Below, piece by piece: positions 4,231 to 24,000 of a stretch of 24,000 nt of DNA (position 1 is the stretch's first letter; each line of letters begins with the position of its first letter). The DNA lies in NCBI GenBank assembly GCA_031222025.1, contig CP130740.1:1385666-1409665 (forward strand), written 5' to 3'. This DNA is from Eubacteriaceae bacterium ES2 (GTDB lineage: Bacteria > Bacillota > Clostridia > Eubacteriales > Eubacteriaceae). Below the pieces are notes generated by a model. That model had not been told where the DNA came from. It was given only the letters and a program-made list of their open reading frames with translations, and made no database searches. The translations under genes were made by a program, and so were the position numbers.

Positions 4231-4266
4231 AAAGCCTCCAAATTATAAATTGATTTGATCTTAATT

Positions 4267-4329
4267 ATTATAACATAAGGCCTAAGCGGAATGAAGATAG
4301 AATAATTCGCTTAGGCCTTATGTTATAAT
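4267..4329. repeat. 22-bp perfect inverted repeat (terminator hairpin of upstream GGDEF gene) carrying TGTTATAAT on both strands
   Basis: attataacataaggcctaagcg (4267-4288) is the exact reverse complement of cgcttaggccttatgttataat (4308-4329), with a 19-nt loop. It lies 16 nt downstream of the stop of gene 4345-5451 (-) and 37 nt upstream of ATG 4230 (-). Each arm ends in an extended -10 consensus, TGnTATAAT. Confidence 0.8.
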
Positions 4330-4344
4330 TCCCAAACAATTCGG

Positions 4345-5512: not shown

Positions 5513-5824
5513 TTTAAAAGCGCACGACAGGGAGCGATATTTAAAATGAGCAGGGATCAGGATCGGGCTGTGACATATAAAAGCCTGACATGAATGAAAT
5601 ACCGAAAGAGAATATTGTGGGTTTTATCGGGTATGAATTTGGTATATTTCTTTTTAATAATTTCCCGTCTTACAAATCCATTCAAAGGGATTCAAGGGAA
5701 CAAACCCAACCGTAAAAAACTGAATCCCCAAAAAGTGCAAGAGAGAAACCTGCGTTAGAGTCGAACACGATAACTTTTTCAGCCAGTAAATAGCAACTTA
5801 AAAGGGTATAATAAGGGAAACGTG

Positions 5825-8119
5825 ATGAAAAAAGATCAGATTAGAGATTTTCTTAATAAAAATATTTTTAAAGCAGATGAACAGGACGAAAGCCTTGGCA
5901 ATCTGCACTTGTTAAAGAACAGGATTTATTCACTGGTCTCATTTCTGATTGTTTTATTCAGTGGACCACTGCTTGTATATGGGGCATATTTATTTTATCA
6001 GAAAAATGATTATTTACAGGCTAGTCTGGAAATCATAGTCTACATCATCGTGATTATTTCTATGACATCTCCCAACATTGGCGTTGATCTAAAGAAGATT
6101 ATCATGATATCATTGATTTATTTTTTCGGTCTTGTTTTGTTGCTTTCTGCTGGGCCCCAAGGAGCTGGGCAAATTACGATTGTTTTATCCTTTGTATTGT
6201 CTTCTTCTGTGCTGGGTAAAAAACAGAACATTCTATTTTTTATTTTTAATCTGGCTATTTTTATCATGATTACGGTTTTTCTTTCTTTGGGCTTTTTAAA
6301 AGGACTTGCCATCAGTCAATATGAAAACTATTGGCTGATCAATGTTCTGACGTTACAACTTGTTTTGATGGGGATGGTTTTTCTACATCAGATGATCTAT
6401 GATGGTCTGGAAAAACAAACTGAAGCAGTTCTCAAATCAAAAAAAAAGTTGGCTGTCAGCGAAGAAAGGTATCGTATTTTGGCCGATAACACTGCAGACG
6501 TTATTTGGGTTTATAATGTTGACTTGAAAAAATTTGTCTATATTAGTCCGGCGATCAAAACACTGCGGGGATTAACTGTAGAGGAAGCGTTAAAAGAGTC
6601 GCTTGAAGAATCAGTGATACCTGAATTTAGAGCGGCTCTAGTTGCTGAGATTGCCAAAAGTTTAAATGATTTCTTGCATAATCCGACAGAGCCGGAAGAT
6701 TTTATTAATGAATTTAAACACCCCTGTAAAGATGGGACTAGCGTTTGGGTTGAAACGGCATCTCGTTATCGCTTTAATGCTAACGGGGAAGTCGAGATCA
6801 TAAGTTCCAGCCGTAATATTATGGAACGAAAAGAAAAGGAAGCTCAGATCGAGTATTTAGATGATCATGATCCCTTAACAGGCTTATTTAACCGCAAAGC
6901 GCTGATGAAGAGAATGCTTAAAGATGAGAAACAGATATCTGTGATTAGTATCAACATTGATAATTTCAGGGTGATTAATGAAGAGCTTGGTCATAAGGGG
7001 GGAGATCGTATTCTTCAGGAATTGTCAGAAAATATCATGACAGCAGTCACAGACATCGGTCAGGTTTACCGGATTGGCGGTGACGAATTTGTAGTGGTAA
7101 TAAAAAATAATTATCACAAACAGGTTCTTAATGTAGCTGAGAAAATTTCTAAAGCTGTTTCAAGACAATTTAAGTCTGATTCTAAGATCTTGTATATTAC
7201 TGTTTCGCTGGGGATCGGAATAGGAGATGAGAATGAAGATTTATCAGAAATTATAAAAAAATCTGACACTGCTTTATACGTTGCTAAAAAAGAAAAAAAT
7301 CAAATATTGCTGTATCAGCCATCAATGGAAAAACGAAGAAGCTGGGAAGCGATACTCGAAAAAGATTTATCATCAGCCCTGGAAAACAAGGAATTCGAAC
7401 TTGTTTTTCAGCCGATTTATGATATAAATCAGCATAAGTTTAATCAGGCTGAAGCTTTGCTGCGATGGAATCATCCGGACTTAGGCGAGATTTCACCTGT
7501 TGACTTTATTCCAATCGCAGAAAAAACCCGTTTGATTATTCCCATCACTAACTGGGTCATAAAAGAAGTCTGTAAACAAAGCAGTAAATGGGCTTCAGCG
7601 GGATTGGGGGAAATGATTATCAGTATTAATATCTCAATTTTACTATTTGAAAATAGGGGTTCAGAGCTTTTAGAAGCTGTTCAGACGGGAATAGATGAGG
7701 CAATGATTCTGGCCAGCTCGATCAAATTGGAAATTACTGAAAGCTGCTTGATCAGAGATACCAATGAGTTAATCAAAACATTTTCTGAGTTGAAGAAAAT
7801 TGGTGTCAAATTGGCATTGGATGACTTCGGCACGGGTTATTCTTTTTTTGGCAGTATCAAAGACTTGCCGCTGGATGTGATTAAACTGGATCGATCGTTG
7901 ATCGCGCAAATTGATATAGATCTGCGAGAGCAGCAAATAATAAAAGCCTTAATTACAATTATTCACAATTTAAAAATTAAAATTGTGGCTGAGGGAATTG
8001 AGACAGTAGCAGAATTTGAAATTTTGCAGCAAATGGGTTGTGATTATATTCAGGGATTTTATTTTAGTCAGCCACTGAAAGCAAGCGATTTGTTTTTTTT
8101 CTGTACTAATAATAGCTAG
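5825..8119 (+). CDS. Membrane-bound PAS-GGDEF-EAL protein (putative bifunctional diguanylate cyclase/phosphodiesterase)
   Basis: The ORF starts at GTG 5822. I prefer ATG 5825 because AAGGGA lies 6 nt upstream. The N-terminal ~190 aa are TM helices, followed by a PAS domain (RYRILADNTADVIWVY...). The GGDEF domain shows DPLTGLFNRKAL and RIGGDEF, with no RxxD. The EAL domain has intact signature residues (EALLRW, EITES, DDFGTGYS, KLDRS, EGIET, QGFYFSQP). Confidence 0.9.
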   Translation: MKKDQIRDFLNKNIFKADEQDESLGNLHLLKNRIYSLVSFLIVLFSGPLLVYGAYLFYQKNDYLQASLEIIVYIIVIISMTSPNIGVDLKKIIMISLIYFFGLVLLLSAGPQGAGQITIVLSFVLSSSVLGKKQNILFFIFNLAIFIMITVFLSLGFLKGLAISQYENYWLINVLTLQLVLMGMVFLHQMIYDGLEKQTEAVLKSKKKLAVSEERYRILADNTADVIWVYNVDLKKFVYISPAIKTLRGLTVEEALKESLEESVIPEFRAALVAEIAKSLNDFLHNPTEPEDFINEFKHPCKDGTSVWVETASRYRFNANGEVEIISSSRNIMERKEKEAQIEYLDDHDPLTGLFNRKALMKRMLKDEKQISVISINIDNFRVINEELGHKGGDRILQELSENIMTAVTDIGQVYRIGGDEFVVVIKNNYHKQVLNVAEKISKAVSRQFKSDSKILYITVSLGIGIGDENEDLSEIIKKSDTALYVAKKEKNQILLYQPSMEKRRSWEAILEKDLSSALENKEFELVFQPIYDINQHKFNQAEALLRWNHPDLGEISPVDFIPIAEKTRLIIPITNWVIKEVCKQSSKWASAGLGEMIISINISILLFENRGSELLEAVQTGIDEAMILASSIKLEITESCLIRDTNELIKTFSELKKIGVKLALDDFGTGYSFFGSIKDLPLDVIKLDRSLIAQIDIDLREQQIIKALITIIHNLKIKIVAEGIETVAEFEILQQMGCDYIQGFYFSQPLKASDLFFFCTNNS

Positions 8120-10337: not shown

Positions 10338-12851
10338 ATGAGTGAGACGATTAATAAAAGAATGATAAATCAGATGCCGATTGCCTATGCCTATCATCAT
10401 GTTCTTTTGAATGATAAAGGCGTACCGATTGATTATGAATTTCTTGAAGTGAACACTGCTTTTGAAAAATTCACAGGACTTAAGGCAAAGAATATTATTG
10501 GACGAAAAGCAACTGAAGTGATCGATGACATCGAAAATGATGATTTCGATTGGATTAGTGAATATGGAAAAATTGCCCTTGAAGGAGGCTTATATGAGAT
10601 TGAACAGTATTCAGGTGCATTTGACAAATGGTATCAAATTCAGGTTGTTTCCGATGAACGATTTTATTTTGCCACTTATTTTACAGACATCACTGAGTTT
10701 CACAGTCAGGTAAATGATTATAAAGTTTTATTAAATTCGCTTAACGATGCAGTTTTTGAGGTGAATGATCAACTGGTATTTGAAAAAGTCTTTGCGCCTG
10801 ACGAATCAATTTTGCTTTTTCCTAAAGAGTTGATTATTGGGAAAAGGATCAGTGATTTATTTGATGGCACCCTGCTGGAGGATTTTCTTGAGGTCTTTCA
10901 AAAGGCAAAAAAGACAAATGAAATGCAAAGCTATGAATATTCCCTTTTGATTGATAATCAAAAAAAATGGTATCAAATGAACGTACGAGCTCTTAAAATA
11001 AATCAATTGGAGAAATTTGTTATCAGCCTGATAGATATCACTGATAAAATACAAGCATTAGAGGAATTGACGCAAAAAACTAATGAATTGGAGCGGTTTT
11101 TTTCTATTAATTTGGATTTGCTCTGCATTGCCAATACCAAGGGTGAGTTTTTAAAAGTCAATAAAGCCTGGGAGGAAACTTTGGGCTATACTGCTGATGA
11201 ATTGGAAGGACGATCTTATTTCGATTTTGTTCATCCTGATGATTTAGAAGAGACGATTAAGGCGACAAATTTACTCGAAGATCAGAATATAATTGATAAC
11301 TTTGTTAACCGCTTTAGAATTTTCAATGGATCTTACAAGTACATAGAGTGGAAAAGCCGGGCGTATGAAGATGTTATCTATGCGGCGGCCAGAGATATAA
11401 CGGAAAAGAGCGAGATGGAAGAGCAACTGTTTCTGGAAAAGGAAAAATATCAATCGACCCTTTTTTCGATTGGCGATGGCGTTATTGCGGTTAATAATCT
11501 GCAGAAAATCACTTTAATGAACAAAGTGGCAGAAGAATTAACGGGCTGGAAACAGGATGATGCAATTCACCGACCTTTTAAAGAGGTTGTTCAATTGATT
11601 CACGAAAAGAATCGCACACCTGTTGATGATCCTGTCGAAAAAGTGCTGAAAACCGGAGCAACGGCAAAGATGGAAAATCATACAGTCCTAATCAGAAAAG
11701 ACCGGACTGAAATTGCCATTGAAGACAGTGCGGCACCAATTCATGACAGCAATCGAAATATTCGGGGAGCTGTGCTTGTTTTTCATGATGTTACCCAAAA
11801 GCGTAAATCTCAGAGTGAAATTCTTTATTTAAGCTATCATGATTTTTTGACGGGCTTATATAATCGGCGTTATTTTGAGGAAGAGGCAGAGCGTTTAGAT
11901 CATGCTGGCAATTTGCCTCTTTCAGTTCTAATGTTGGATGTTAATGGTCTTAAACTGACTAATGACGCTTTTGGTCATAGAACAGGTGATGCACTGCTTA
12001 AAAAAGTAGCGGAAATAATTAAGAAAAATGCTCGTATGGGTGACCTGATCGCTAGATTAGGTGGCGATGAATTTGCTGTGCTGTTACCAAAAACGAATAA
12101 GAAAGAAGCGATGATGATCGGCCAAAGAATTCTAAAATACACCGAATTAAATACAGTTGGTTCGGTTATTATTTCAGTAGCTATTGGACAAGCGACCAGA
12201 GTTGCAATGAATCAGAGTTTTGAAGAAACTGTCAAAATCGCAGAAAATATGATGTATAAAAACAAGGTTCAATCAAGTCGACTAATGAGAGATCAAACGA
12301 TTATTCTAATTCAGGAAACTTTAAATAAAAAAAGTGACATGGAACGAATTCACTCGCAGCGCGTGGGGAGAATTGCTAAATATTTAGGGGAAGCAATGAA
12401 TTTAACGATCGAACAAGTAAAAATGTTAGAGACTATCGGTTTACTTCATGATCTGGGTAAAATTATCGTACCAGAGGAGATATTAAAAAAAGAAGGAAAA
12501 CTCAGTGAAAAGGAATATAGTATCATGAAAAACCATGCGGAGACAGGTTATCAGATCTTAAAATCTGTTGAGGAGTATGTTCCGATAGCCGAAATAGTTT
12601 TGTCCCATCATGAATGGTGGGATGGAACAGGATATCCGAGAAACTTAAGCGGTCTCGATATTCCTTTCTTTTCGAGAATTATCCAGGTGGCAGATGCATA
12701 TGAGGCAATGACAGCTGACAGACCCTATCAGAAAGCCTTTAATAAGGACGAAGCTATCAAAGAACTTAAGGCTCTTTCAGGTATTCAGTTTGATCCTAAG
12801 ATTGTTGATATTTTGGTTGAAAAGGTATTGATAAAATCATTTGATGAATAA
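10338..12851 (+). CDS. Cytoplasmic multi-PAS sensor with GGDEF and HD-GYP domains
   Basis: 837 aa with no TM segment and about four PAS-like repeats. The GGDEF domain shows HDFLTGLYNRRYF and RLGGDEF, with RMGD as an RxxD I-site 5 residues upstream. The C-terminal HD-GYP domain shows HDLGK and HHEWWDGTGYP. Confidence 0.9.
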   Translation: MSETINKRMINQMPIAYAYHHVLLNDKGVPIDYEFLEVNTAFEKFTGLKAKNIIGRKATEVIDDIENDDFDWISEYGKIALEGGLYEIEQYSGAFDKWYQIQVVSDERFYFATYFTDITEFHSQVNDYKVLLNSLNDAVFEVNDQLVFEKVFAPDESILLFPKELIIGKRISDLFDGTLLEDFLEVFQKAKKTNEMQSYEYSLLIDNQKKWYQMNVRALKINQLEKFVISLIDITDKIQALEELTQKTNELERFFSINLDLLCIANTKGEFLKVNKAWEETLGYTADELEGRSYFDFVHPDDLEETIKATNLLEDQNIIDNFVNRFRIFNGSYKYIEWKSRAYEDVIYAAARDITEKSEMEEQLFLEKEKYQSTLFSIGDGVIAVNNLQKITLMNKVAEELTGWKQDDAIHRPFKEVVQLIHEKNRTPVDDPVEKVLKTGATAKMENHTVLIRKDRTEIAIEDSAAPIHDSNRNIRGAVLVFHDVTQKRKSQSEILYLSYHDFLTGLYNRRYFEEEAERLDHAGNLPLSVLMLDVNGLKLTNDAFGHRTGDALLKKVAEIIKKNARMGDLIARLGGDEFAVLLPKTNKKEAMMIGQRILKYTELNTVGSVIISVAIGQATRVAMNQSFEETVKIAENMMYKNKVQSSRLMRDQTIILIQETLNKKSDMERIHSQRVGRIAKYLGEAMNLTIEQVKMLETIGLLHDLGKIIVPEEILKKEGKLSEKEYSIMKNHAETGYQILKSVEEYVPIAEIVLSHHEWWDGTGYPRNLSGLDIPFFSRIIQVADAYEAMTADRPYQKAFNKDEAIKELKALSGIQFDPKIVDILVEKVLIKSFDE

Positions 12852-13536: not shown

Positions 13537-14865
13537 TTGAACGAAAAGCCGTTAATAGGTTTACTGATTTTACAATTAATATTTATTTTGTTAAATGCGG
13601 TTTTTGCCGGAGCTGAAATTGCCGTCATTACTTTTAATGACAAGAAACTAAAAAAACTGGCTATTGGCGGTGATAAAAGAGCCATTAGGCTTCTAAGATT
13701 GATTGAAGAACCGGCCGGCTTTCTGGCCACTATTCAGGTAGGAATCACACTTGTAAATTTATTAAGCAGTGCGGTTGCCACAGATAACTTTTCGAACCGT
13801 TTGCAGGAATGGTTTTTAAGGATGGGTTTAAATATATCTGAACCAGTACTAAATGCATTATCAATGGTTGTGATCACCATACTGTTAACCTATTTTACAG
13901 TTTTGCTTGGAGAACTGGTTCCTAAACGTTTGGCGATGAAGAAAGCTGAATCGGTAGCCTTGGCTATGTCAGGATTGATTTATGTTGTTGCAAAAATTTT
14001 CAAACCGGCAGTTTGGCTTTTTACTGTTTCTACGGATGGTTTATTAAGATTACTGAGAATTGATATTAATAATGAAGAAGAGGAAAATGTTGAAGAAGAA
14101 ATTCGGATGATCTTAGATGCTGGAAAACAAAAAGGGATCATTGAACCAGATGAAGAAAGAATGATACAGCGGGTATTCGAATTCGATGATATTAAGATTG
14201 AGGAAATAATGACCCATCGTACTCAAATTATAATTTTATGGATGGATGAATCAGATGAAAAATGGGAGCAAAAGATCCTCGGGTCACGACATACCAATTT
14301 TCCAATATGTCAAGAATCTCATGATCAGGTCGAGGGGGTTCTTTTTACCAAAGATTATTTTAGAATGAAAGAGCGAAACAGAGAAAATGTTTTAATGAAA
14401 GCGGTCAAACCGGCAGTATTTGTACCTGAGACTATTCATGCAGATGTGGTATTCAGAAATATGCAGAAAAGTCGTAATCACTTTGCCATTGCAGTGGATG
14501 AGTATGGTGGCATGAGTGGCGTCATTACAATGAATGATCTGCTGGAACAATTAGTGGGCAGCCTTGATGACAGGCGTGTTTTTTCTGATGAATTGCCAAT
14601 GATTCAAAAAATTGACGAAAATACCTGGCGAATCCATGGGGCTTGTGATCTTGACGAAGTGGCGAATCAGCTGGCAATTACTTTTTCTGATGAACATTTC
14701 AATACCTTTGGCGGTTGGGTTTTTAATAGATTGGGTATTATTCCTGAAGATGGTAGTACTCCGGAAATTCAATATAACGGTTTTAACATTATGGTGACAA
14801 AATTGAAAGAACATCGACTCATCAGTGCAGTTGTTAACAGGATAGAAAATGAGCGACAGAAATAG
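13537..14865 (+). CDS. CNNM/HlyC-CorC family transporter (DUF21 TM domain + CBS pair + CorC_HlyC C-terminal domain)
   Basis: TTG start with the RBS GAGAGGAG upstream. The N-terminus is typical of DUF21 (LLNAVFAGAEIAVIT). Also present are MTHRT, a CBS region (AIAVDEYGGMSGVITMNDLLEQLVG) and a C-terminal transporter-associated domain. Confidence 0.85.
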   Translation: MNEKPLIGLLILQLIFILLNAVFAGAEIAVITFNDKKLKKLAIGGDKRAIRLLRLIEEPAGFLATIQVGITLVNLLSSAVATDNFSNRLQEWFLRMGLNISEPVLNALSMVVITILLTYFTVLLGELVPKRLAMKKAESVALAMSGLIYVVAKIFKPAVWLFTVSTDGLLRLLRIDINNEEEENVEEEIRMILDAGKQKGIIEPDEERMIQRVFEFDDIKIEEIMTHRTQIIILWMDESDEKWEQKILGSRHTNFPICQESHDQVEGVLFTKDYFRMKERNRENVLMKAVKPAVFVPETIHADVVFRNMQKSRNHFAIAVDEYGGMSGVITMNDLLEQLVGSLDDRRVFSDELPMIQKIDENTWRIHGACDLDEVANQLAITFSDEHFNTFGGWVFNRLGIIPEDGSTPEIQYNGFNIMVTKLKEHRLISAVVNRIENERQK

Positions 14866-15034
14866 ATGCTTAGATGTTGCTCACAACTAAGTCATATGTA
14901 ACAGAAAAAAATATAAAAATGAATATCCATTGTAATTAAGGGGATATTATTAAGAAATGAATTAATATAGTCTATTTTTAGTTCAAATGTAAATGTTGTA
15001 TTTCTGCGAATTTAATTTAAAAGGAGAAGAAACG

Positions 15035-15829
15035 ATGCCTCTGGAAGATGATAAGTTAAAAGCTCAGTTATTGGAACAAATACCTGTACCGGTCATGGCC
15101 GTTGATTGCAATCTGAAGATTATTTATATTAATGAAGCTGGTAAAAAAATGCTCAATAAGGGGCATGAGCAATTAATTGGATGCTCTTGTCATGAAATTG
15201 TTAATTCGGAACAGTGCGGGACACCAGAGTGTAATATGTTAAAGGTTCAAAAAACTGGTAAACAAATAACAGCTCGAAGCTTGATTATGGTTAATCATAT
15301 AAAAACACCAATTGAATATACAAGTGTACCATTTAAAAATGAAAAGGGTGAAATTATTGGAGGCCTGGAGTTTTTTATGGACATTACTGAACGTGTTAAT
15401 TATGAAAATCGTTTAAAAGAACAAAGTCACACAATTCGAGAGATGTCAACACCGACCATAAAATTGTGGGATGGTGTAATGGTTTTACCGGTTGTAGGTG
15501 TTATCGATTCAATGCGTGCCCAGCATATGATGGACAGTATACTCAATAAAATTGCCGAAACATATACGAAGGTTATTATTCTTGATATTCATGGAGTTGC
15601 TGCTGTGGACACGGCGGTGGCAAATCATTTAATAAAAATCACTAAGGCAACGAAACTGATGGGGTGCGAGTGCATTCTGTCAGGCATTTCACCTGCAGTA
15701 GCGCAAACAATTATTCAATTGGGAATAGATATGGGAACCATCCAAACAAAGGCAACCTTGAGCGATGCACTTAGTGAAGCGTTTATTATGCTTGATCTGG
15801 AAGTGTGTGCAATAAAGGATGGAAGATGA
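15035..15829 (+). CDS. rsbR: RsbR-like stressosome sensor: Cys-rich PAS domain + C-terminal STAS domain
   Basis: AAAGGAGAAG precedes ATG 15035; the track start at 14993 lacks an RBS. The N-terminal PAS carries C-x-C-H-x7-C-x4-C. The C-terminal STAS has the RsbR phosphoacceptor context DIHGVAAVDTAVANHLIK (compare B. subtilis RsbRA DITGVPVVDTMVAHH, recalled from memory). Confidence 0.8.
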   Translation: MPLEDDKLKAQLLEQIPVPVMAVDCNLKIIYINEAGKKMLNKGHEQLIGCSCHEIVNSEQCGTPECNMLKVQKTGKQITARSLIMVNHIKTPIEYTSVPFKNEKGEIIGGLEFFMDITERVNYENRLKEQSHTIREMSTPTIKLWDGVMVLPVVGVIDSMRAQHMMDSILNKIAETYTKVIILDIHGVAAVDTAVANHLIKITKATKLMGCECILSGISPAVAQTIIQLGIDMGTIQTKATLSDALSEAFIMLDLEVCAIKDGR

Positions 15830-16221
15830 AAGAAAGATACTTTTATAACCACCGTTTACATAAACGTTTAACAGAAGATCTGTCAGATTTTGTACTTGAA
15901 GAAATTAAAAAACAAATATTCGAAAAAGTGAATGGAGAGAATATAAAAGAATTGATATTTGATTTTGAAGATGTGAATGTCATGGACTCCTTTACATATA
16001 ATAGTTTAGATCGCATAACAAGTGAACTCAAATTAATGGGTGTTGAAGTGGTATGGGTTGGACTAAAGCCGTGCTTAATAGCAGGACTAATAGAATTGGA
16101 GGTTGAAATCAATCCATTGATTCATGTTGAGAAAAATTTAAATATGGGCAACCTTTATTTAGATCAAATTGGAAATGAGAGAAATAAGCATGCCAGATCC
16201 CAAAGAGGAAAATCCTCGTGA
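15826..16221 (+). CDS. rsbS: RsbS-like single-domain STAS protein (stressosome scaffold/antagonist)
   Basis: ATG 15826 overlaps the rsbR stop in an ATGA junction (15826-15829), with the RBS AAGGATGG. The protein is ~131 aa and STAS-only, with the conserved phosphorylatable Ser context DFEDVNVMDSFTYNSL. Confidence 0.75.
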   Translation: MKERYFYNHRLHKRLTEDLSDFVLEEIKKQIFEKVNGENIKELIFDFEDVNVMDSFTYNSLDRITSELKLMGVEVVWVGLKPCLIAGLIELEVEINPLIHVEKNLNMGNLYLDQIGNERNKHARSQRGKSS

Positions 16222-16651
16222 ACAATCGAATTATGAAATACTAGAGACGCGTAAACATATTCTTGAATGGAATTACGATCATGAGAATGTTGTTTACAGT
16301 GTCATTGAAATGGCTCGAAAAACCGGTTTCAATCAACAGCAAAGTGTGATGATTTCGACTGCGGCTTCGGAGTTATCAACGAATATATTAAGATATGCCA
16401 ATTCCGGTAAAATACAGATCAGTATCATTAGAGATAGTCATATACAACGTATGGGAATTAAAATAGTAGCGACAGACAGGGGACCGGGAATCAGTGATCT
16501 AAAAAAGGTAATGGAGGAAAATTACAGTACTTTTCCCGGAAGCCTTGGGTTAGGATTGCCCAGTGTTAAACACATAATGGATCAGTTTTGGATTGAATCA
16601 GAGCTAGGTGCTGGGACACGTGTAGAAATATTAAAATGGTTGGAAAAATGA
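16190..16651 (+). CDS. rsbT: RsbT-like GHKL serine/threonine kinase (anti-sigma regulatory factor family, HATPase_c_2)
   Basis: N-box ELSTNILRYA, G1 DRGPGI, G2 GSLGLGLPSV and C-terminal GAGTRVEILKW. The start is uncertain: TTG 16169, ATG 16175 and ATG 16190 are all in frame, and all overlap the 3' end of rsbS by 32-53 nt. Confidence 0.8.
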   Translation: MPDPKEENPREQSNYEILETRKHILEWNYDHENVVYSVIEMARKTGFNQQQSVMISTAASELSTNILRYANSGKIQISIIRDSHIQRMGIKIVATDRGPGISDLKKVMEENYSTFPGSLGLGLPSVKHIMDQFWIESELGAGTRVEILKWLEK

Positions 16652-17238
16652 CAATTGTGAACTATGCATCAGGGCTATGGCCGTTAATGGGAAGTATTGA
16701 AGAATGTGGTGATTATCCTTTGATAATTGAGTGTCAGCAAGGCGTGTTTGTAGCCATGATTGACGTGCTAGGTCATGGATTTGAAGCACGAAAAATAGCG
16801 GTTATGGCTTCGGAATACCTATTGAATCATTTGCAAAATGATTTGTTGGATCTTTTACATGGTTTGCATGATTATATTCAGGGGGAAAGAGGACTGGTCA
16901 TTCTGCTTGGATGGTGTAATCCGACTGAACAAACTTTTATATACTCGGGAATCGGTAATATTGTCGGCAGAATTTTTGGCTTTCACGATAAACGTCTGAT
17001 TCTGAGGGATGGGATTATTGGGAGTGGCATGATTCATCCGGTCATAAAGGAGTGCTCTTTTACAACTAGAGATTTAATGCTCATACATACTGATGGAATA
17101 AAGGAACATTTCAATCAATTTGAATATCCTGAGCTTTTGGCAAAAGATCCTCAAGCTGTAGCAAGTGGGCTGATTGATCAACTCAGAAAAGAAACGGATG
17201 ACGCGGGATGCATTGTATTTCGCTATGAAGATTTTTGA
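16648..17238 (+). CDS. rsbX: RsbX-like PP2C/SpoIIE-family phosphatase
   Basis: ATG 16648 overlaps the rsbT stop in an ATGA junction (16648-16651). PP2C-type motifs are shared with RsbX: ECGDY, MIDVLGHGFEA, GIGNIVG and LIHTDGI. Confidence 0.75.
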   Translation: MTIVNYASGLWPLMGSIEECGDYPLIIECQQGVFVAMIDVLGHGFEARKIAVMASEYLLNHLQNDLLDLLHGLHDYIQGERGLVILLGWCNPTEQTFIYSGIGNIVGRIFGFHDKRLILRDGIIGSGMIHPVIKECSFTTRDLMLIHTDGIKEHFNQFEYPELLAKDPQAVASGLIDQLRKETDDAGCIVFRYEDF

Positions 17239-17259
17239 TGTTTTATGGGGAGTGTTAGG

Positions 17260-18747
17260 ATGATAAAACTGGGATCAGTTAGAATAACAACTAATTTTGA
17301 GATGATTCAGATTCGCAAAAAGGTTCACATCATTGCCAGTAAACTTGGTTGTACGAATATTATCGCCGCAAGAATAGAAGCATTATTTTCGGATCTAATT
17401 AGAGAGTTATTAATGATGAATGATGCAATTGAACTTCGAGTTTTTTTGAATGACATGATTCATGAAAAGGGTATTATTTTTGAAACGGGACCTTGCAATC
17501 AATCCATTATTATTAAATCATATAATTCTAAACTGCTTTTTTTGAATTGGATTCAACTTGGAAAAGGGTTAAAACAACTTACCATTACAATTCCTTTTCG
17601 CACAATCAATCCAGAAATTAATTCAATTTTAATTCAATCTATCAAGGACGAGATTAATGCTAAATCAAAAGAAGAACTGCAAGAGGAAATAAAGAAAAAA
17701 AACGAAGAACTGTCGTCCAGCAGGGAATTTATGGAATCAGTACTTGATAATTTAAAAGCGGCAGTTTATGTTAAAAATCTGAGCGGAGAGTATACATTTC
17801 TAAATCGTCAATGGGAAGAGTATTTAAATTTTGATCGTAAAAATTGTCTGGGAAAAACGGTGGCGCAACTTGTCGGAAACACAATTGCGCAAGATCAGCA
17901 TCGTCAGGATATGGCGGTTATAAAAAACAGAAATATTGAAGTTATCGAAGAAAAACTATCGTATCGGGGGACTGAACTGACATTATTGACAACAAAAGTG
18001 CCGATGTATATAAACGAAGAAATGATTGGTATTTGTAGTATTTCTACTGATATCTCGAAACGTATCCAGATGGAAGAGGAATTAATTGAAGCGAAGTTAC
18101 TTGCTGAAGAAGCTGCTGAATCAAAAAGTAATTTTTTAGCAAACATGAGCCATGAGATTAGAACACCAATGAACGCTATTTTAGGAATGAGTTATCTTTT
18201 ACAAAAGACAAAACTAGACGAAAAGCAAGGCGATTATCTTGAGAAAATAAGGGGGTCGGGACAGCACTTATTGGGGATTATTAATGATATCCTTGATTTT
18301 TCGAAGATTGAAGCGGGAATGCTGGATGTTGAGGTAGTTGAATTCAGTCTTTACGATGTTCTAGATAATCTGGCTAATTGTGTAGGTGAAAAATGTCGAT
18401 CAAAAGGTCTGGAACTGATGTTCGATATTGATTCAGAAATACCCAATAAATTGAAAGGAGATCCTTTACGTGTTGGACAAATTCTAATTAATTATGTAAA
18501 TAATGCTATAAAATTTACTGAGCATGGTGAAATAATTCTAAAAATAAAAATGATAGAAAGACAGAAAGATGGATATTTTTTAAAATTTGAAGTTACTGAT
18601 ACTGGAATTGGTTTAACAGAAGAACAACAAAATAGATTATTTTCTTCTTTTCAGCAGGCAGATACATCAACAACCCGAAAATATGGCGGAACGGGTTTGG
18701 GGCTAGCAATTTCTAAAAATTTGACTGAACTGATGGGGGCAGGGTAG
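17260..18747 (+). CDS. Hybrid histidine kinase, N-terminal fragment as encoded (alternative representation of the same locus)
   Basis: ORF in frame 1 ending at TAG 18745-18747. It contains the N-domain, PAS, HisKA and most of HATPase_c, and lacks the last beta-strands of the ATPase domain. Confidence 0.6.
   Translation: MIKLGSVRITTNFEMIQIRKKVHIIASKLGCTNIIAARIEALFSDLIRELLMMNDAIELRVFLNDMIHEKGIIFETGPCNQSIIIKSYNSKLLFLNWIQLGKGLKQLTITIPFRTINPEINSILIQSIKDEINAKSKEELQEEIKKKNEELSSSREFMESVLDNLKAAVYVKNLSGEYTFLNRQWEEYLNFDRKNCLGKTVAQLVGNTIAQDQHRQDMAVIKNRNIEVIEEKLSYRGTELTLLTTKVPMYINEEMIGICSISTDISKRIQMEEELIEAKLLAEEAAESKSNFLANMSHEIRTPMNAILGMSYLLQKTKLDEKQGDYLEKIRGSGQHLLGIINDILDFSKIEAGMLDVEVVEFSLYDVLDNLANCVGEKCRSKGLELMFDIDSEIPNKLKGDPLRVGQILINYVNNAIKFTEHGEIILKIKMIERQKDGYFLKFEVTDTGIGLTEEQQNRLFSSFQQADTSTTRKYGGTGLGLAISKNLTELMGAG
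18735..18739 (+). other. G5 homopolymer at the frameshift site of the hybrid kinase
   Basis: The sequence is ctg atg ggg gca ggg tag. One extra G (G6) would give ctg atg ggg ggc agg gta ggt = LMGGRVG, matching the conserved LMGG(R/K)IxVES block of HATPase_c. Confidence 0.8.
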
Positions 18748-18899
18748 GTGTTGAATCTGTTTACGGTCAGGGCAGTACTTTTTGGTTTACAGTACCATTC
18801 AAAGAATCAAAAAATTCTCAGCAATCTAAGATCTCTAGTCTTATTTTACAAAACTATCGCGCTTTAGTCGTAGATGATCACGAAAATGCTCGGCTTATC

Positions 18900-20342
18900 A
18901 TGTCAGATATGCTAAGCTCTCTGGGTTTGGCGGTCGATCTTGCTACGGATGGATTTGAAGCAGTAAAGAAATTTAGTGATAATGACAAAAAAGGTCAAGC
19001 CTATGATTTAGTTTTTATGGATATGCAGATGCCCGGGATGAGTGGTGTTCAGACGATTGAAACAATAAAAAATCAGATTACAAAAAAAGTACCATACTTT
19101 ATTATAGTCACGGCCTATGGACGAGAAGAAGTATTTTTGAAAGCAAAGCAGATAGAAGTTGATTTGATTTTAGTTAAACCAGTTAATTTATGGGTGTTAA
19201 ATGATGTTGTACATCAGTTGCTTGAGAAAAAAGAAGAAAGATCTTTTGAAAAGAACTATCAGCAGACTGATAATTCGTTAGAAAAACAAATATCAAAAAT
19301 TGCGGGAGCTAGAATTTTATTAGTAGAAGACAATGAAATTAATCAGGAAGTTGTTTTGGAAATTCTAAAAGAGGGACAAGTAGTGGTGAAAACTGTGACT
19401 AATGGGCAGTTGGCAGTTGACGAAGCAGAAAAAAATAAATATGATATAATATTGATGGATATGCAAATGCCTGTTATGGATGGTCTTGAGGCAACAGAAC
19501 GTATCCGTGCAAAAGTTTCTGGGGCCACAGTGCCCATAATAGCAATGACCGCTAATGCGATGCGTGGAGACCGAGAGCGTTGTCTTCAGGCTGGTATGAA
19601 TGGTTATTTGTCGAAACCCATTGATCCTGTTCAGTTGTTTGAAACGCTCTTAAAATGGATTAAGCCTGAAGAAAATTCTAGACCTGTTTCTGTTAAGCCA
19701 GAAGAAACTGACGTTCAGCTGATAAAAATTGAAGGATTGGACATGGAAACAGGTATTAATAGAATTATGGGAAAGAAGAAGTCTTATATAAAATTGTTGA
19801 AAAAATTTGCTGACGGACAGAAAAAGACGGGATCAGAAATAGAAAGTGCAATTGATCAGGGTGATTTCACAAAAGCGGCAAGATTAATTCATTCATTAAA
19901 AGGGGTAGCTGGTAATATTGGGGCGACACGGGTGGCCAAAAAAGCAGAATCGCTAGAAACTGCTATTCGTGAGCAGCCGGGAAAGGCAACACTAAAACCA
20001 CTGATTGAGGAACTGTCCAAGGAATTAGACCAACTGATTGTATTAATTAAATTAAATTATAATGATGAAAGTGAAAAGCTTTCACACGAAAATGAGGTGA
20101 ATGTAAGCGATGAAATTATCATCTTTCTGGAAACCCTGATACCCTACTTAAAAGCACGTAAACCAAAACCTTGCGCAGAACTAATTGAAGAAAAATGGAA
20201 TAGAAATTGGACAGAAAAAATTCAGACTAAAGTTGATGACGTGATTAACAAGGTTTTAAAGTATCGGTTTAAAGAAGCACAAGCTGATGCTGAGTGCTTG
20301 CTTGCGAAATTGAAAGAGGAAAAGCATGAAAACTTTAAGTGA
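18900..20342 (+). CDS. Hybrid histidine kinase, C-terminal fragment as encoded (REC-REC-HPt; alternative representation of the same locus)
   Basis: This is the first ATG of frame 0. The ORF lacks the beta-1/DD pocket of REC1, which is encoded upstream of the ATG in the same frame. It is therefore unlikely to be an independent gene. Confidence 0.5.
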   Translation: MSDMLSSLGLAVDLATDGFEAVKKFSDNDKKGQAYDLVFMDMQMPGMSGVQTIETIKNQITKKVPYFIIVTAYGREEVFLKAKQIEVDLILVKPVNLWVLNDVVHQLLEKKEERSFEKNYQQTDNSLEKQISKIAGARILLVEDNEINQEVVLEILKEGQVVVKTVTNGQLAVDEAEKNKYDIILMDMQMPVMDGLEATERIRAKVSGATVPIIAMTANAMRGDRERCLQAGMNGYLSKPIDPVQLFETLLKWIKPEENSRPVSVKPEETDVQLIKIEGLDMETGINRIMGKKKSYIKLLKKFADGQKKTGSEIESAIDQGDFTKAARLIHSLKGVAGNIGATRVAKKAESLETAIREQPGKATLKPLIEELSKELDQLIVLIKLNYNDESEKLSHENEVNVSDEIIIFLETLIPYLKARKPKPCAELIEEKWNRNWTEKIQTKVDDVINKVLKYRFKEAQADAECLLAKLKEEKHENFK

Positions 20343-21441
20343 ATGTAATGTTCTGATAGTAGATGATACAGAGATAAATATTGATATTCTCGTAGAGGCG
20401 CTGGGGGATGATTATGATCTATCTGTAGCTCTTGACGGTGAAACGGCACTTGAAATAATTTCAGAAGAAATGCCAGATTTAATTCTACTGGATATAATGA
20501 TGCCTGGAATGAGCGGCTATGAAGTATGTCATCTATTAAAAAACAATCATCAAACAAAAGACATTCCAATTATTTTTCTGACAGCAATGACCGATATCGA
20601 CAGCAAAAAGAAAGCCTTTGAAGCTGGGGCAGTAGATTATATAACAAAGCCATTTGAAATTATTGAAGTGCGGGCAAGAACACAGACTCATTTGATGTTA
20701 ACCTTAATTCAACAGGATCTGGACATGAAGAATAAAAATCTAGAAAAACTGGTGGAGATTCGAACGAAAGAATTATGCATGACTCAGGATATTACCATCG
20801 AAGCACTTGCAGCATTAGCGGAATATCGTGATCCAGACACCGGAGGACATATTAATCGAACAAAAAATTATGTTCGAATTTTGGGAAGAGCTTTACATAA
20901 TACTCAGAAGTATCATGGTTTACTAACTGAGAAACTGATAGAAGAATTATATAAGTCTGCGCCTTTGCACGATATTGGAAAAATTGGTATTCGTGATGAA
21001 ATTTTACTGAAGCCTGGCAAATTGACAGAAGAAGAATTTACGATTATGAAAAATCATACTTTGATTGGCTTCAACGCAATCCAGGTGGCTTCTAATCGGT
21101 TAGGTGGTAACTCGTTTTTAAAATCGGCAATGGAGTTTTCCAAGTATCATCACGAAAGATGGGATGGCATGGGATATCCTGATAAATTATCGGGCGAAGA
21201 TATACCCTTGCCTGGTCGAATAATGGCAGTTGCCGATGTTTATGATGCTTTGATCAGCAAGCGCTGCTATAAGCAGCCGTTTGCCCACCGGGAGGCTGTT
21301 GGGTTGATAAATGAAGGAAAAGGGAGTCAATTTGATCCTGATATTGTTGATGTATTTATGAAAGAACAAGAAGCTTTTAGGCAAATTGCTCTAAAATATG
21401 CCGATTGTGAAGAAGAACGGATTAAACTAAACGAAATTTAA
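20326..21441 (+). CDS. Response regulator with HD-GYP output domain (RpfG-type c-di-GMP phosphodiesterase)
   Basis: REC domain: VLIVDDTEINIDIL, LILLDIMMPGMSG and ITKP. HD-GYP domain: HDIGK and HHERWDGMGYP. The ATG 20326 overlaps the kinase 3' end by 17 nt. Confidence 0.9.
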   Translation: MKTLSECNVLIVDDTEINIDILVEALGDDYDLSVALDGETALEIISEEMPDLILLDIMMPGMSGYEVCHLLKNNHQTKDIPIIFLTAMTDIDSKKKAFEAGAVDYITKPFEIIEVRARTQTHLMLTLIQQDLDMKNKNLEKLVEIRTKELCMTQDITIEALAALAEYRDPDTGGHINRTKNYVRILGRALHNTQKYHGLLTEKLIEELYKSAPLHDIGKIGIRDEILLKPGKLTEEEFTIMKNHTLIGFNAIQVASNRLGGNSFLKSAMEFSKYHHERWDGMGYPDKLSGEDIPLPGRIMAVADVYDALISKRCYKQPFAHREAVGLINEGKGSQFDPDIVDVFMKEQEAFRQIALKYADCEEERIKLNEI

Positions 21442-21470
21442 ATGACAAAAATTATTAAGGAGTTACTAGA

Positions 21471-22454
21471 TTGATCGAAAAAAAGAGACTGGAACTTTCT
21501 ACACAAATGCTCATCAGTGCGGCAGAAAAGCGGAAGTTATGTGTTCAAGTTCTAGATTATGAAGATAATTTTATTCGCATCCATGACGAAAAAAAGGTTG
21601 AGTATATCAAGGAGGCAACAAAAACCTCAGTGGATCCCTATATTGTCCCATTAATTATGGAGAATAAAGAAATTACCAAATTGATTTTAAGAGAACAAAA
21701 GATCAATGTTCCAGAGGGGATTCGCGTAAATTCCCTTGAAGAAGGGCTTGCCTTATATTCGGATTGGGATAAAAAAGCGTTGGTTATTAAACCCAAGAAT
21801 ACTAACTTTGGTCTTGGGATTACCATCCTAAAAAAACTTGAGTCGATGGAAGCTTTTAAAGACGCCTTGCAATTTGCCTTTTCTTATGATAAAACAGTGC
21901 TGATAGAGACCTTTGTTCGGGGAAAAGAATATCGTTTTCTGGTGATTGGCGATGAAGTTGCTGGAATTTTGCACCGCGTCCCTGCCAATGTAAAAGGTGA
22001 TGGTATCATGACAATCAGTGAGCTGGTGAATGAAAAGAATAAAGACCCTTTGCGTGGTAAAGGGTATGTAACCCCGCTTGAAAAACTCAGCCTGGGAGAA
22101 ACAGAAATTGCTTTTTTGAAAGCCGACCACAGAACCAAGGATACGATTCCAGAAAAGGATGAATTGGTTTTTCTGCGGGAAAACTCCAATATCAGTACAG
22201 GTGGTGACAGTATAGACTACACTGAAATAATTAGGAGCGACTACAAGAAGATTGCCATTGAAGCTGCCAAGGCGGTTGGGGCGAAAATATGTGGCGTTGA
22301 TATGATGATAAGAAGTATCGACGAAAAAGCAGGCCAGGATAATTACAGCATTATAGAACTAAATTTTAATCCGGCACTGCACATCCATAATTATCCCTGG
22401 CACGGAAAAAACAGACATGTTGAGGAAAAAGTGCTGGATCTATTGGGCTTTTAA
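21471..22454 (+). CDS. Stand-alone ATP-grasp ligase resembling the C-terminal (glutathione-synthetase-like) domain of bifunctional GshF/GshAB
   Basis: TTG start with AAGGAG 8 nt upstream, 29 nt after the regulator stop. Blocks I recall from the GshF C-terminus and cyanophycin-synthetase-type ATP-grasp domains are present: VIKPKNTNFGLGI, EYRFLVIGDEV, RVPANVKGDGIMTISELVNEKNKDPLRG, NSNISTGGDSIDYT and ELNFNPALHIH. No glutamate-cysteine ligase domain is present. Confidence 0.7.
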   Translation: MIEKKRLELSTQMLISAAEKRKLCVQVLDYEDNFIRIHDEKKVEYIKEATKTSVDPYIVPLIMENKEITKLILREQKINVPEGIRVNSLEEGLALYSDWDKKALVIKPKNTNFGLGITILKKLESMEAFKDALQFAFSYDKTVLIETFVRGKEYRFLVIGDEVAGILHRVPANVKGDGIMTISELVNEKNKDPLRGKGYVTPLEKLSLGETEIAFLKADHRTKDTIPEKDELVFLRENSNISTGGDSIDYTEIIRSDYKKIAIEAAKAVGAKICGVDMMIRSIDEKAGQDNYSIIELNFNPALHIHNYPWHGKNRHVEEKVLDLLGF

Positions 22455-22635: not shown

Positions 22636-24000
22636 ATGCTACATTCAAGACCAGATGAAAAAGAGATTGAACAGGAATGCTTCCATGCATCTGTATTCAG
22701 TGAAGAAATTTTGAATTTCCCCAAGTATCATTTAAACGAAGAATCAGTTGATCCGGAACTGGCTTATCGGATTATAAAAAATGACTTAATGGATGAGGGG
22801 AATTCAAGACAGAATTTGGCAACTTTTTGCCAGACGGATATGCAACCGGAAGCGGTTCGGTTAATGGCGGAGACCCTGGAAAAAAATGCAATTGATAAAT
22901 CGGAGTATCCGCAGACCGCCGATTTAGAAAAACGGTGTGTCAATATTCTTGCTGATTTGTGGAATGCGCCAAAAGATAAAGCTTTTATAGGAACATCGAC
23001 AGTGGGTTCTTCAGAAGCGTGCATGCTTGGTGGACTGGCCATGAAGTTCAGATGGCGGAAAGCGGCGGAAATTAATGGACGCGACATTTATCGAAAAAAA
23101 CCTAATCTGGTTATTTCATCAGGTTTTCAGGTATGTTGGGAGAAGTTTTGTGTTTATTGGGATATTGAACTACGAACGGTTCCGGTTGATGAAACCCATC
23201 TGGCCATTAATCTTGATACGGTCATGGACTATGTAGATGACTATACCATCGGGATTGTTGCAATTATGGGAATCACCTACACGGGTAAATACGATGATGT
23301 AAAAGGCCTTAACGATCTGGTGGAAGTGTATAATCAACAGGCTGACTACAAAATACCGATTCATGTGGACGGTGCGTCAGGCGCCATGTTTGCTCCCTTT
23401 GCTTTTCCGGATCTAGAATGGGATTTCAGGCTTTCTAATGTGGTGTCCATTAATACGTCGGGACATAAATATGGATTGGTTTATCCAGGCATTGGATGGA
23501 TTATCTGGAAAGATCAGGAATTTGTTCCACAGGAACTGATCTTTGATGTCTCCTACCTGGGGGGCAGCATCCCCACGATGGCTATTAATTTTTCGCGTTC
23601 AGCCAGTCAAATCATTGGCCAGTATTTTAATTTTTTGTCTTTGGGTTATTCGGGCTATCAAAGTATACAATTGCGAACTCGGCGGGTTGCCAGGTTTATT
23701 GCTTCTGAGATCGAAAAAACGGGTTTGTTTGAAATGATTAATGATGGTGATAATATCCCGATCGTTTGCTGGAAAATGAAAACCGAAAAAAAATGGAACC
23801 TCTATGATCTGGCTGATCGTCTGCGGATGAACGGCTGGCAGGTTCCGGCCTATCCTTTACCAGAAAACTTGCAAAAAACAGTCATTCAACGGGTAGTGGT
23901 GAGACAGGATCTGAATCGACAATTAGCATTGCTTTTTGTCGAAGACTTAAAGCGGGCCATTATTGATCTGGATCATGCCCGAGTTCTTTTCAGTTCCCCA
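22636..24000 (+). CDS. gadB: Glutamate decarboxylase, PLP-dependent (3' end cut by window edge; absent from ORF track because no stop is reached)
   Basis: GAGGAGG lies 6 nt before ATG 22636. I hand-translated 455 codons to nt 24000 with no stop. Hallmark GAD blocks are NLATFCQT, IDKSEYPQTADLEKRCVNILADLW, GTSTVGSSEACMLGGLAMKFRW and the PLP-lysine motif NTSGHKYGLVYPGIGW. Confidence 0.9.
   Translation, partial: MLHSRPDEKEIEQECFHASVFSEEILNFPKYHLNEESVDPELAYRIIKNDLMDEGNSRQNLATFCQTDMQPEAVRLMAETLEKNAIDKSEYPQTADLEKRCVNILADLWNAPKDKAFIGTSTVGSSEACMLGGLAMKFRWRKAAEINGRDIYRKKPNLVISSGFQVCWEKFCVYWDIELRTVPVDETHLAINLDTVMDYVDDYTIGIVAIMGITYTGKYDDVKGLNDLVEVYNQQADYKIPIHVDGASGAMFAPFAFPDLEWDFRLSNVVSINTSGHKYGLVYPGIGWIIWKDQEFVPQELIFDVSYLGGSIPTMAINFSRSASQIIGQYFNFLSLGYSGYQSIQLRTRRVARFIASEIEKTGLFEMINDGDNIPIVCWKMKTEKKWNLYDLADRLRMNGWQVPAYPLPENLQKTVIQRVVVRQDLNRQLALLFVEDLKRAIIDLDHARVLFSSP

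Follow-up and report, generated by a model that had tools for sequence, protein, structure and literature searches.

A stressosome module joined to a two-component phosphorelay in Eubacteriaceae bacterium ES2, with an RsbT-like N-terminal domain of the kinase as the putative coupler

The subject of this work is a stressosome locus of Eubacteriaceae bacterium ES2, contained in a window of 24,000 nucleotides (nt) of contig CP130740.1; the window is the whole stretch of DNA that was analyzed, and all positions are given in its numbering. Six genes on the plus strand, at 15035-21441, encode RsbR, RsbS, RsbT, RsbX, a hybrid histidine kinase and a REC-HD-GYP response regulator, each supported by Pfam. 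The locus is a member of a known cassette, in which an RsbRSTX module is followed by a two-component system and a phosphodiesterase for cyclic di-GMP (c-di-GMP), and its wiring diagram is not new. With the architecture already known, the element that looks new is the N-terminal domain of the kinase (N-dom), about 135 residues resembling RsbT, which probably connects the stressosome half with the output half.

The stressosome genes and their packing

The six genes were found as tightly packed as the original prediction, made from the sequence of the window, had claimed. ATGA start/stop overlaps lie at 15826-15829 (rsbR/rsbS) and 16648-16651 (rsbT/rsbX), the rsbS stop at 16221 falls inside rsbT, for which the candidate starts span 16169-16190, 21 nt separate the rsbX stop from the kinase start at 17260, and the end of the kinase overlaps the regulator gene by 17 nt. 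A search of the plus strand from 14865 to 22454 found no terminator-like site, and an Rfam scan of the window found nothing.

The rsbR-like gene (15035-15829; WKY45750.1, with the same start) is preceded by a GGAG ribosome-binding site 9-13 nt upstream and encodes a protein with PAS_4 (Pfam, 3e-15) and STAS (1e-16) domains. Its phosphoacceptor threonine, equivalent to T171 of Bacillus subtilis, lies in VDTAV (GVAAVDTAV) and is invariant in 17 homologues; a second threonine (AVAQT) is also present. The identity of RsbR to 16 homologues from several phyla is 54-67%. In its PAS domain a cysteine triad, C52, C61 and C66 (GxxC-x8-C-x-T-x2-C), is invariant in the 17 homologues and often accompanied by a fourth cysteine and a histidine, which suggests a metal, Fe-S or redox input. 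The nearest NCBIfam model is that of the YtvA LOV-STAS family, far under its cut-off. When identities across phyla were compared (alignment A5; loci L002-L039 of the relatives described below), the 54-67% of RsbR stood against 15-31% for RsbS, 31-48% for RsbT, 27-40% for RsbX and 16-38% for N-dom. Such high identity of RsbR suggests either that the sensor/STAS protein is strongly constrained or that the cassette has spread horizontally.

The rsbS-like gene (15826-16221) encodes a single STAS domain (4e-9) with Ser55 in MDSF, equivalent to S59; Asp54 never varies, and most homologues have Ser or Thr at position 55. In globin-type cassettes (L004:1971-2399 and L041:7508-7930), Leu replaces the Ser/Thr after the invariant Asp (DL instead of DS), and therefore the canonical site there may be non-phosphorylatable. 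The rsbT-like gene (16169-16651, start possibly at 16175 or 16190) encodes a GHKL Ser/Thr kinase (HATPase_c 7e-11, HATPase_c_2 8e-9) with the N, G1 and G2 boxes kept, E68, N72, D103, G105, G107, G127 and G129 being invariant in 31 homologues. Judged from these boxes, the RsbT of the cassette is a GHKL kinase of the catalytically active type. The rsbX-like gene (16648-17238) encodes a single-domain PP2C phosphatase (SpoIIE, 28.5 bits against a cut-off of 25), in which the motifs CGD, DVLGHG, GNI, DG and DD are conserved in 13 homologues; no NCBIfam model matches it.

All four components by which a stressosome module is recognized, RsbR, RsbS, RsbT and RsbX, are thus present. The Pfam profile searches confirmed the predicted assignments of a PAS-STAS RsbR, a single-STAS RsbS, a GHKL RsbT and a PP2C RsbX, and the alignments confirmed both predicted acceptor contexts, Thr in VDTAV and Ser in MDSF. 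Stressosomes assemble into pseudo-icosahedral particles of about 1.8 MDa, in which RsbT is sequestered; for ES2 such an assembly is putative. Also as predicted, no sigma factor, RsbU, RsbV or RsbW is found among the window genes by Pfam annotation, and a Bacillus-type SigB output, that is, an RsbU bearing RsbU_N together with RsbV, RsbW and sigB adjoining rsbRST, is absent from the window.

The hybrid kinase, its frameshift and the REC-HD-GYP regulator

The kinase begins with N-dom (residues 1-135; 17260-17664), an RsbT/RsbW-like GHKL domain without ATP lid that was assigned by fold model and hhalign. It is followed by a helical linker (17665-17754; SRxEL...KNxEL signalling helix), seen in the alignment and in the AlphaFold2 (AF2) model, where residues 137-164 form an unbroken helix with a predicted local distance difference test score (pLDDT) above 90; E139 and L140 are nearly invariant. 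The linker leads to a PAS domain (17743-18063; PAS_4 2e-11, residues 167-273 of the open reading frame (ORF) 17245-18747), which is a possible second signal input. The HisKA and HATPase_c core (18121-18800; HisKA 9e-24, HATPase_c 4e-20) carries the H-box SHEIRTP. Two REC domains follow (18855-19646; Response_reg 9e-50 in two stretches), both with the acidic pocket, the Asp of DMQMP, and the Thr and Lys present, and the protein ends in an Hpt domain with HSLKG and a C-terminal tail (19794-20342; Hpt 2e-13). Pfam finds no RsbU_N in this PAS-HisKA-HATPase-REC-REC-Hpt architecture. The original prediction of a hybrid kinase without transmembrane segments holds for the domains and for the lack of such a segment (the largest Kyte-Doolittle mean over 19 residues is 1.22); it fails in that the kinase is not one ORF, being split by a frameshift at 18735-18739.

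Three-frame translation placed this -1 frameshift at a run of five G residues (G5, 18735-18739), which breaks the catalytic core. The ORF 17245-18747 ends with "LMGAG*", five codons past the G5 run, so that the HATPase_c match in this first ORF stops at profile position 88 of 111, and the protein resumes in another frame. Changing G5 to G6 restores a single kinase ORF of 1027-1032 residues. Programmed -1 frameshifting at the G run was rejected, because the sequence there does not form a canonical slippery heptamer.

The split could mean that the output branch is dead in ES2, the frameshift being real, the kinase lacking the end of its ATP-binding domain, both RECs and Hpt, and the cassette decaying, a reading compatible with other mechanisms in intact relatives. 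The frameshift stands in the deposited genome; in GenBank the N-terminal part of 495 residues is WKY45754.1 (100% identical to the first ORF), the next accession is the regulator WKY45755.1, and the REC-REC-Hpt half has no protein accession. Furthermore, all relatives read LMGGxVGVES uninterrupted across this point. On the other side, no stop interrupts the 531 codons beyond the shift, in which all REC and Hpt motifs are kept, and therefore the lesion is either a homopolymer sequencing error or very recent. Single-base errors in G homopolymers are a common sequencing artefact, and the other translated genes of the window are all intact. A dead output branch is regarded as rather unlikely. The kinase or the regulator is also split in two ORFs in loci from metagenome-assembled genomes (MAGs), at positions that differ from that of the window (L006:9031-11771, L042:9055-11527 and L012:4454-5605); these splits are probably assembly or homopolymer errors.

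The gene after the kinase (20326-21441) encodes the predicted REC-HD-GYP regulator (Response_reg 2e-27, HD_5 2e-28), with the signature motifs HDIGK and HHERWDGMGYP. Both the HD and the GYP motif lie inside HD_5, as is required of the HD-GYP family, and c-di-GMP hydrolysis is predicted from the sequence. In NCBIfam it comes closest to the NosR-family REC c-di-GMP phosphodiesterase, with 159 bits where the cut-off is 400. The c-di-GMP-rich neighbourhood noted in the original prediction was recovered as four further c-di-GMP genes in the window: two GGDEF genes, one MASE11-PAS-GGDEF-EAL gene and one gene with three PAS domains, GGDEF and HD-GYP. The two GGDEF genes lie at 3037-5451 on the minus strand and the MASE11-PAS-GGDEF-EAL gene at 5822-8119; the gene that combines GGDEF and HD-GYP, at 10338-12851, encodes a protein of 837 residues with several PAS domains and both a GGDEF cyclase and an HD-GYP phosphodiesterase domain.

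An RsbT-like domain at the head of the kinase

The start of the kinase, which the original prediction had passed over, tells more than any other part of the locus. Residues 1-160 of the kinase match nothing in Pfam or NCBIfam, and none of 47 members of the N-dom family matches any Pfam model. N-dom is common to all full-length relatives of the kinase, and when 1.84 billion representative proteins were searched exhaustively with phmmer, 18 were found to carry it, with the match beginning at residue 1 in almost all of them. An AF2 model from an alignment of 25 sequences (pLDDT 89, predicted template modelling score (pTM) 0.76) shows a beta-alpha-alpha-beta4-alpha fold and then the long helix. 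When this model was compared with the PDB by Foldseek, the top 11 matches were all anti-sigma GHKL proteins, including UsfX with the STAS protein RsfB, RsbW and SpoIIAB, and SiaB came lower; the best match was UsfX (PDB 8ih8; E 2e-3, probability 1.0). Alignment of the 47 N-doms with 31 RsbTs by hhalign gave a probability of 96.9% and an E-value of 1.4e-10 over 114 columns spanning the whole RsbT fold; the first hhalign run, with only five RsbT sequences, had been weak, with a probability of 18%. In addition, the hidden Markov model (HMM) of N-dom matches genuine RsbT ORFs, for example Bacillus RsbT, at an E-value of about 2e-9 in a small database. A word-indexed protein search gave no match for N-dom alone and one fragment for the 47-sequence profile, the index being too insensitive for this domain, and a profile search of PDB sequences returned coiled-coil noise only.

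The motifs of ATP binding are missing from N-dom: the residue at the N-box position varies, and a shortened G1-G2 segment has no glycines, so that neither the N-box Asn nor G1 DxGxG nor G2 is found. Lacking these motifs, the domain is a pseudokinase rather than a kinase, and profile alignment and fold comparison argue that it is an RsbT-derived GHKL pseudokinase domain. Conservation is very high in its beta-1 strand (MxxLGxL). Neither the searchable literature nor Pfam or NCBIfam yielded a description of stressosome outputs that begin with an RsbT-like domain.

Helix alpha-1 holds a further distinction between N-dom and RsbT. In B. subtilis RsbT, R19, R23 and N24 of this helix have been implicated in the binding of RsbU (Hardwick 2007, cited in PMC12143880). 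In the column equivalent to R19, Arg occupies 45 of 47 N-doms; the RsbTs of N-dom cassettes have Val or Ile there in 23 of 25 cases and Arg in none (0/25), the window RsbT having Val; and among RsbTs of RsbU_N or classical loci Arg is found in 4 of a small group of 6. N-dom also keeps K21 (45/47), R38 (46/47) and the S44-E/D45 pair. The catalytic RsbT of these cassettes has thus lost this "switch" arginine, and the dead N-dom copy on the output enzyme has kept it. RsbT mutants of Hardwick et al. were reportedly affected in binding to RsbU and also to the binary RsbR:RsbS complex.

Conservation of the cassette in relatives

Relatives were recovered along two routes, through homologues of the kinase and through RsbT. 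Among six loci recovered via kinase homologues, the linkage of stressosome and kinase is kept in five. The locus with the kinase of 53% identity (L001) has the order RsbT-RsbX-histidine kinase-Hpt-REC-HD_5; that of a Treponema MAG (L002/L003, 41% identity) has GGDEF, RsbR, RsbS, RsbT, histidine kinase and REC-HD_5; L004 has a globin RsbR followed by RsbS, RsbT, RsbX, histidine kinase and Hpt; and L005 and L050 have RsbR, RsbS, RsbT, RsbX and histidine kinase in this order. By the other route, species-representative genomes were scanned with an RsbT alignment. The 44 loci anchored on RsbT that this gave are spread over Bacillota, Spirochaetota, Fibrobacterota, Desulfobacterota, Bacteroidota, Victivallales, Gemmatimonadota, Planctomycetota, Calditrichota and Proteobacteria (Alphaproteobacteria and Burkholderiaceae), and their ORFs were annotated by HMM and phmmer. 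The typical cassette among them is RsbR-RsbS-RsbT-RsbX, then a kinase with REC-REC-Hpt, then REC-HD-GYP. The gene right after RsbT/RsbX begins with N-dom in 37 of these 44 loci, which were found with patterns of this RsbT subfamily, and most such genes are kinases. The pair of kinase and REC-HD_5 regulator recurs in 13 or more of the related loci. A REC-guanylate/adenylate cyclase takes the place of REC-HD-GYP at the end of the relay in Alphaproteobacteria and Victivallales. The Rsb-like and two-component genes are thus syntenic in relatives, and domain and synteny evidence together support the original prediction of an RsbR-S-T-X module joined to a phosphorelay that ends in a REC-HD-GYP regulator.

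N-dom is not confined to kinases. By Pfam it is fused to PP2C-HATPase_c_2 (L029, L031) and to PP2C (L038), and reading of the sequences placed it on nucleotide cyclases (P0122, P0124 and P0127), a PP2C (P0128), an HD-GYP fragment (P0131) and kinases. Two Pfam-checked loci without N-dom have RsbU_N in its place, as RsbU_N-GGDEF (L030) and as RsbU_N-HisKA-HATPase (L032). With RsbU_N taking its place there and N-dom standing at the head of output genes, N-dom behaves as an alternative to RsbU_N. It occurs with both PAS-type and globin-type RsbR, including the globin-type cassettes of other Proteobacteria.

Several variant arrangements were observed in passing. In an alphaproteobacterial MAG (L045:7896-14635) the cassette is rearranged, with RsbR, RsbS, the N-dom kinase, Hpt and REC encoded on the strand opposite to that of RsbT-RsbX. 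The deltaproteobacterial locus L030 (6742-12277) has two tandem RsbT-like genes and RsbX, then the RsbU_N-GGDEF gene, and further downstream a protein that ends in an HD-GYP domain and, by eye alone, begins with an RsbU_N-like region; a cyclase and a phosphodiesterase may there both be served by a single stressosome. Extra RsbR-like proteins were seen in L020:2417-6616 and L029:4638-6506, one of about 1400 residues that matches the window RsbR and another with the architecture dCache-HAMP-STAS, which would be membrane-anchored.

Downstream of the regulator in the window, after a gap of 29 nt and no terminator, a stand-alone ATP-grasp protein is encoded at 21471-22454. With 462 bits (cut-off 425), it matches the part of bifunctional GshAB that acts as glutathione synthetase. 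A PLP-dependent (pyridoxal phosphate-dependent) decarboxylase of the glutamate type follows at 22636-24000 and runs off the window end. Neither gene is kept beside the cassette in relatives, and the GshB-like ATP-grasp gene was rejected as a cassette member because it is not conserved downstream there.

How the kinase may be coupled to the stressosome

Pane-Farre et al. in 2005, and later Heinz et al. in 2022 (PMC9237108), drew up catalogues of RSTX modules (rsbR, rsbS, rsbT and rsbX) that are followed by two-component or c-di-GMP outputs; the original prediction had pointed to the 2005 work. In Vibrio vulnificus, the VvRsbRSTX-VvD1-VvD2 locus comprises RSTX, a sensor kinase and a predicted c-di-GMP-degrading regulator; it has been in the literature since Pane-Farre 2005 and was studied by cryo-electron microscopy, proteomics and deletion mutants (Heinz 2022, PMC9237108; Cutugno 2023, PMC10014275). 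There rsbRSTX is co-regulated with VvD1/VvD2, and deletion of D1 lowers motility and fleQ expression (PMC10014275). Heinz et al. found that most downstream proteins, including VvD1, have no RsbU_N, and an RsbT-VvD1 interaction was not shown (PMC9237108). The original prediction had called the wiring uncharacterized; this stands for the step from stressosome to kinase and is too strong for the route to c-di-GMP degradation, which has been described for VvD1/VvD2.

The best explanation, and a reasonably probable one on the comparisons above, is that the ES2 locus belongs to this known cassette and that N-dom couples the output enzyme to the stressosome, playing the role that RsbU_N plays in Bacillus. 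As for how, the favoured version, put at slightly under an even chance, is that RsbT was duplicated; the free RsbT would have kept catalysis and lost the alpha-1 Arg, N-dom would have done the reverse, and N-dom would dock on the STAS core. Docking on STAS partners is typical of GHKL anti-sigma proteins, and UsfX, which is not known to have kinase activity, does likewise. At rest, the kinase would be held through N-dom on the unphosphorylated RsbR/RsbS STAS core. A signal would be sensed by the Cys-containing PAS of RsbR, and possibly also by the PAS of the kinase, upon which RsbT would phosphorylate RsbS-Ser and RsbR-Thr. N-dom would then be let go, and the helical linker would permit an active kinase dimer. 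Phosphate would pass from His to REC to Hpt and to the REC of the HD-GYP regulator, c-di-GMP would be hydrolyzed and its level would fall, and RsbX would dephosphorylate the core and reset the system. Control of the kinase may be by activation or by inhibition. The absent RsbT-VvD1 interaction of Heinz et al. is what docking on the STAS core would lead one to expect, and the lower motility of the V. vulnificus D1 mutant agrees with a c-di-GMP-degrading output.

A number of observations weigh against this explanation. The kinase gene of ES2 is frameshifted as deposited, and the relay works only if this is a sequencing error or is bypassed. The sixth kinase-anchored locus (L051, 4045-7925) has an N-dom kinase (P0057), then Hpt, REC and HD, with no RsbRST genes in the 4 kb upstream of it; the PAS region seems to have been deleted, and the kinase may be an orphan or decayed copy. 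Since the 44 loci were found with patterns of this RsbT subfamily, the proportion of 37/44 is not representative of all stressosomes, and the group of other RsbTs used for the arginine comparison is small (n=6). The ATP lid forms a large part of the SpoIIAB-SpoIIAA interface, and N-dom has no ATP lid, so its STAS binding may be weak or different. Finally, VvD1 is no more than a candidate member of the N-dom family: a tblastn search of plasmids with N-dom, seeking VvD1, gave no match, and the published quantitative PCR primers for VvD1, searched against metagenomes, gave 0 and then 29 chance matches, none with N-dom.

Other readings of the locus have to be weighed against N-dom as the coupler. 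That the Rsb-like and two-component genes are independent systems, merely adjacent, is strongly disfavoured and has hardly any probability left: for it speaks that this organism offers no experimental link, and against it the gene order conserved in dozens of species and more than 10 phyla, the overlaps or gaps of at most 21 nt with no terminator-like site, the RsbT-derived domain borne by the kinase, and the co-regulation in V. vulnificus. A more serious competitor, though a less likely one, makes RsbT itself the messenger, by analogy with RsbU. Freed RsbT would bind N-dom, GHKL to GHKL as in the RsbW or SpoIIAB dimer, together with the helix, stiffen the linker and switch the kinase. N-dom sits exactly where RsbU_N would, whose established partner is RsbT, and the long helix after it resembles the RsbU linker; its closest structural relatives at the top of the fold search, RsbW and SpoIIAB, are dimers, and the conserved beta-1 strand (MxxLGxL) would fit an edge-strand interface. 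Such a messenger is opposed by the loss, in the RsbTs of N-dom cassettes, of the alpha-1 Arg (R19 equivalent) implicated in RsbU binding, and by the failure to find an RsbT-VvD1 interaction (PMC9237108), although this two-hybrid negative is weak evidence because the same assay missed RsbT-RsbS binding too.

It was also proposed by Heinz et al. that outputs without RsbU_N are phosphorylated by RsbT (PMC9237108), and RsbT might thus phosphorylate the kinase directly on Ser/Thr in a transient encounter, with N-dom only a dimerization or substrate domain. According to the summary of the Moorella work in PMC4976288, the RsbT homologue phosphorylates the cyclase downstream of it, and Ser44 of N-dom is nearly invariant. 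Ser44, however, is part of the structural "SE" in the N-box helix of the GHKL fold, and RsbT conserves it just as well, so that it gives no specific acceptor signature; moreover, the whole RsbT-like fold and a basic alpha-1/alpha-2 face are strictly conserved, which exceeds what a phosphoacceptor loop would need. Direct phosphorylation is held to be improbable. Coupling through N-dom, preferably by its docking on the STAS core, is the reading retained here. In its widest form, which is put forward tentatively and with a little less confidence than docking in the cassette itself, N-dom would be a widespread undescribed pseudokinase family and a built-in messenger, by which outputs (histidine kinases and PP2C, probably also cyclases and HD-GYP proteins) dock on the STAS core and are freed upon phosphorylation by RsbT.

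Significance

Stressosomes are found in many phyla, and only the Bacillus route, in which RsbT binds RsbU_N, is understood; for most other loci the coupling step has had no explanation since 2005, and the one direct attempt, with RsbT and VvD1 in V. vulnificus, was negative. A conserved dead copy of RsbT on the kinase turns this gap into a concrete experiment. N-dom is a domain definable by HMM and missing from Pfam and NCBIfam, and its inclusion would improve the annotation of hundreds of genes now called "ATP-binding protein" or "hybrid sensor kinase" and would tie the sensing of stress to outputs that work through c-di-GMP, cyclic nucleotides or phosphatases. A built-in messenger, if true, would explain signalling by stressosomes without an RsbU_N output, probably including that of V. 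vulnificus, and would provide a clear case of a switch kinase split into a catalytic half and a partner-binding half.

Comparison with known systems

The closest known system is that of V. vulnificus. Both loci have the RSTX order with RsbX directly after RsbT, followed by a soluble PAS-containing hybrid kinase of about 1000-1060 residues (VvD1, VV2_0077, in V. vulnificus), and then by a predicted c-di-GMP-degrading regulator; both lack sigma B (here within the window) and RsbU_N. The RsbR of ES2 differs in having a Cys-containing PAS_4 domain instead of the Protoglobin/haem globin, the host is a low-GC anaerobe of the Eubacteriaceae, and the ES2 kinase gene is frameshifted.

With the RsbRST-RsbU system of B. 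subtilis, the ES2 locus shares an RsbR/RsbS STAS core in which the Thr and Ser acceptors correspond, the RsbT kinase and the RsbX feedback phosphatase, and its output enzyme is built like RsbU, from an N-terminal docking domain (putative in ES2), a helical linker and a catalytic domain. The output itself is a histidine kinase phosphorelay instead of the PP2C-RsbV-RsbW-sigma chain, and the putative docking domain is an RsbT-like pseudokinase instead of the four-helix RsbU_N. In addition, RsbX of ES2 directly follows RsbT, and the ES2 RsbT has no R19 equivalent.

The Moorella thermoacetica module MtR-MtS-MtT-MtX-MtG (Quin 2012, as described in PMC12143880) has the same RSTX order and a c-di-GMP rather than a sigma output, and the original prediction, which gave it as controlling a GGDEF cyclase, is borne out by the RsbU_N-GAF-GGDEF architecture of MtG. 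In Moorella, this cyclase is acted on by MtT in one step, whereas in ES2 a multi-step phosphorelay leads to HD-GYP, with N-dom as the proposed coupler. Of the loci recovered here, L030, with its RsbU_N-GGDEF gene, is of the Moorella type. As for N-dom itself, the nearest known protein is UsfX (RsbW) of Mycobacterium tuberculosis, whose STAS partners are RsfA and RsfB. The two share the GHKL anti-sigma fold, which in UsfX was solved with a STAS antagonist (8ih8). UsfX is free-standing and sequesters a sigma factor, whereas N-dom has a shorter lid region and is fused through a helix to signalling enzymes.

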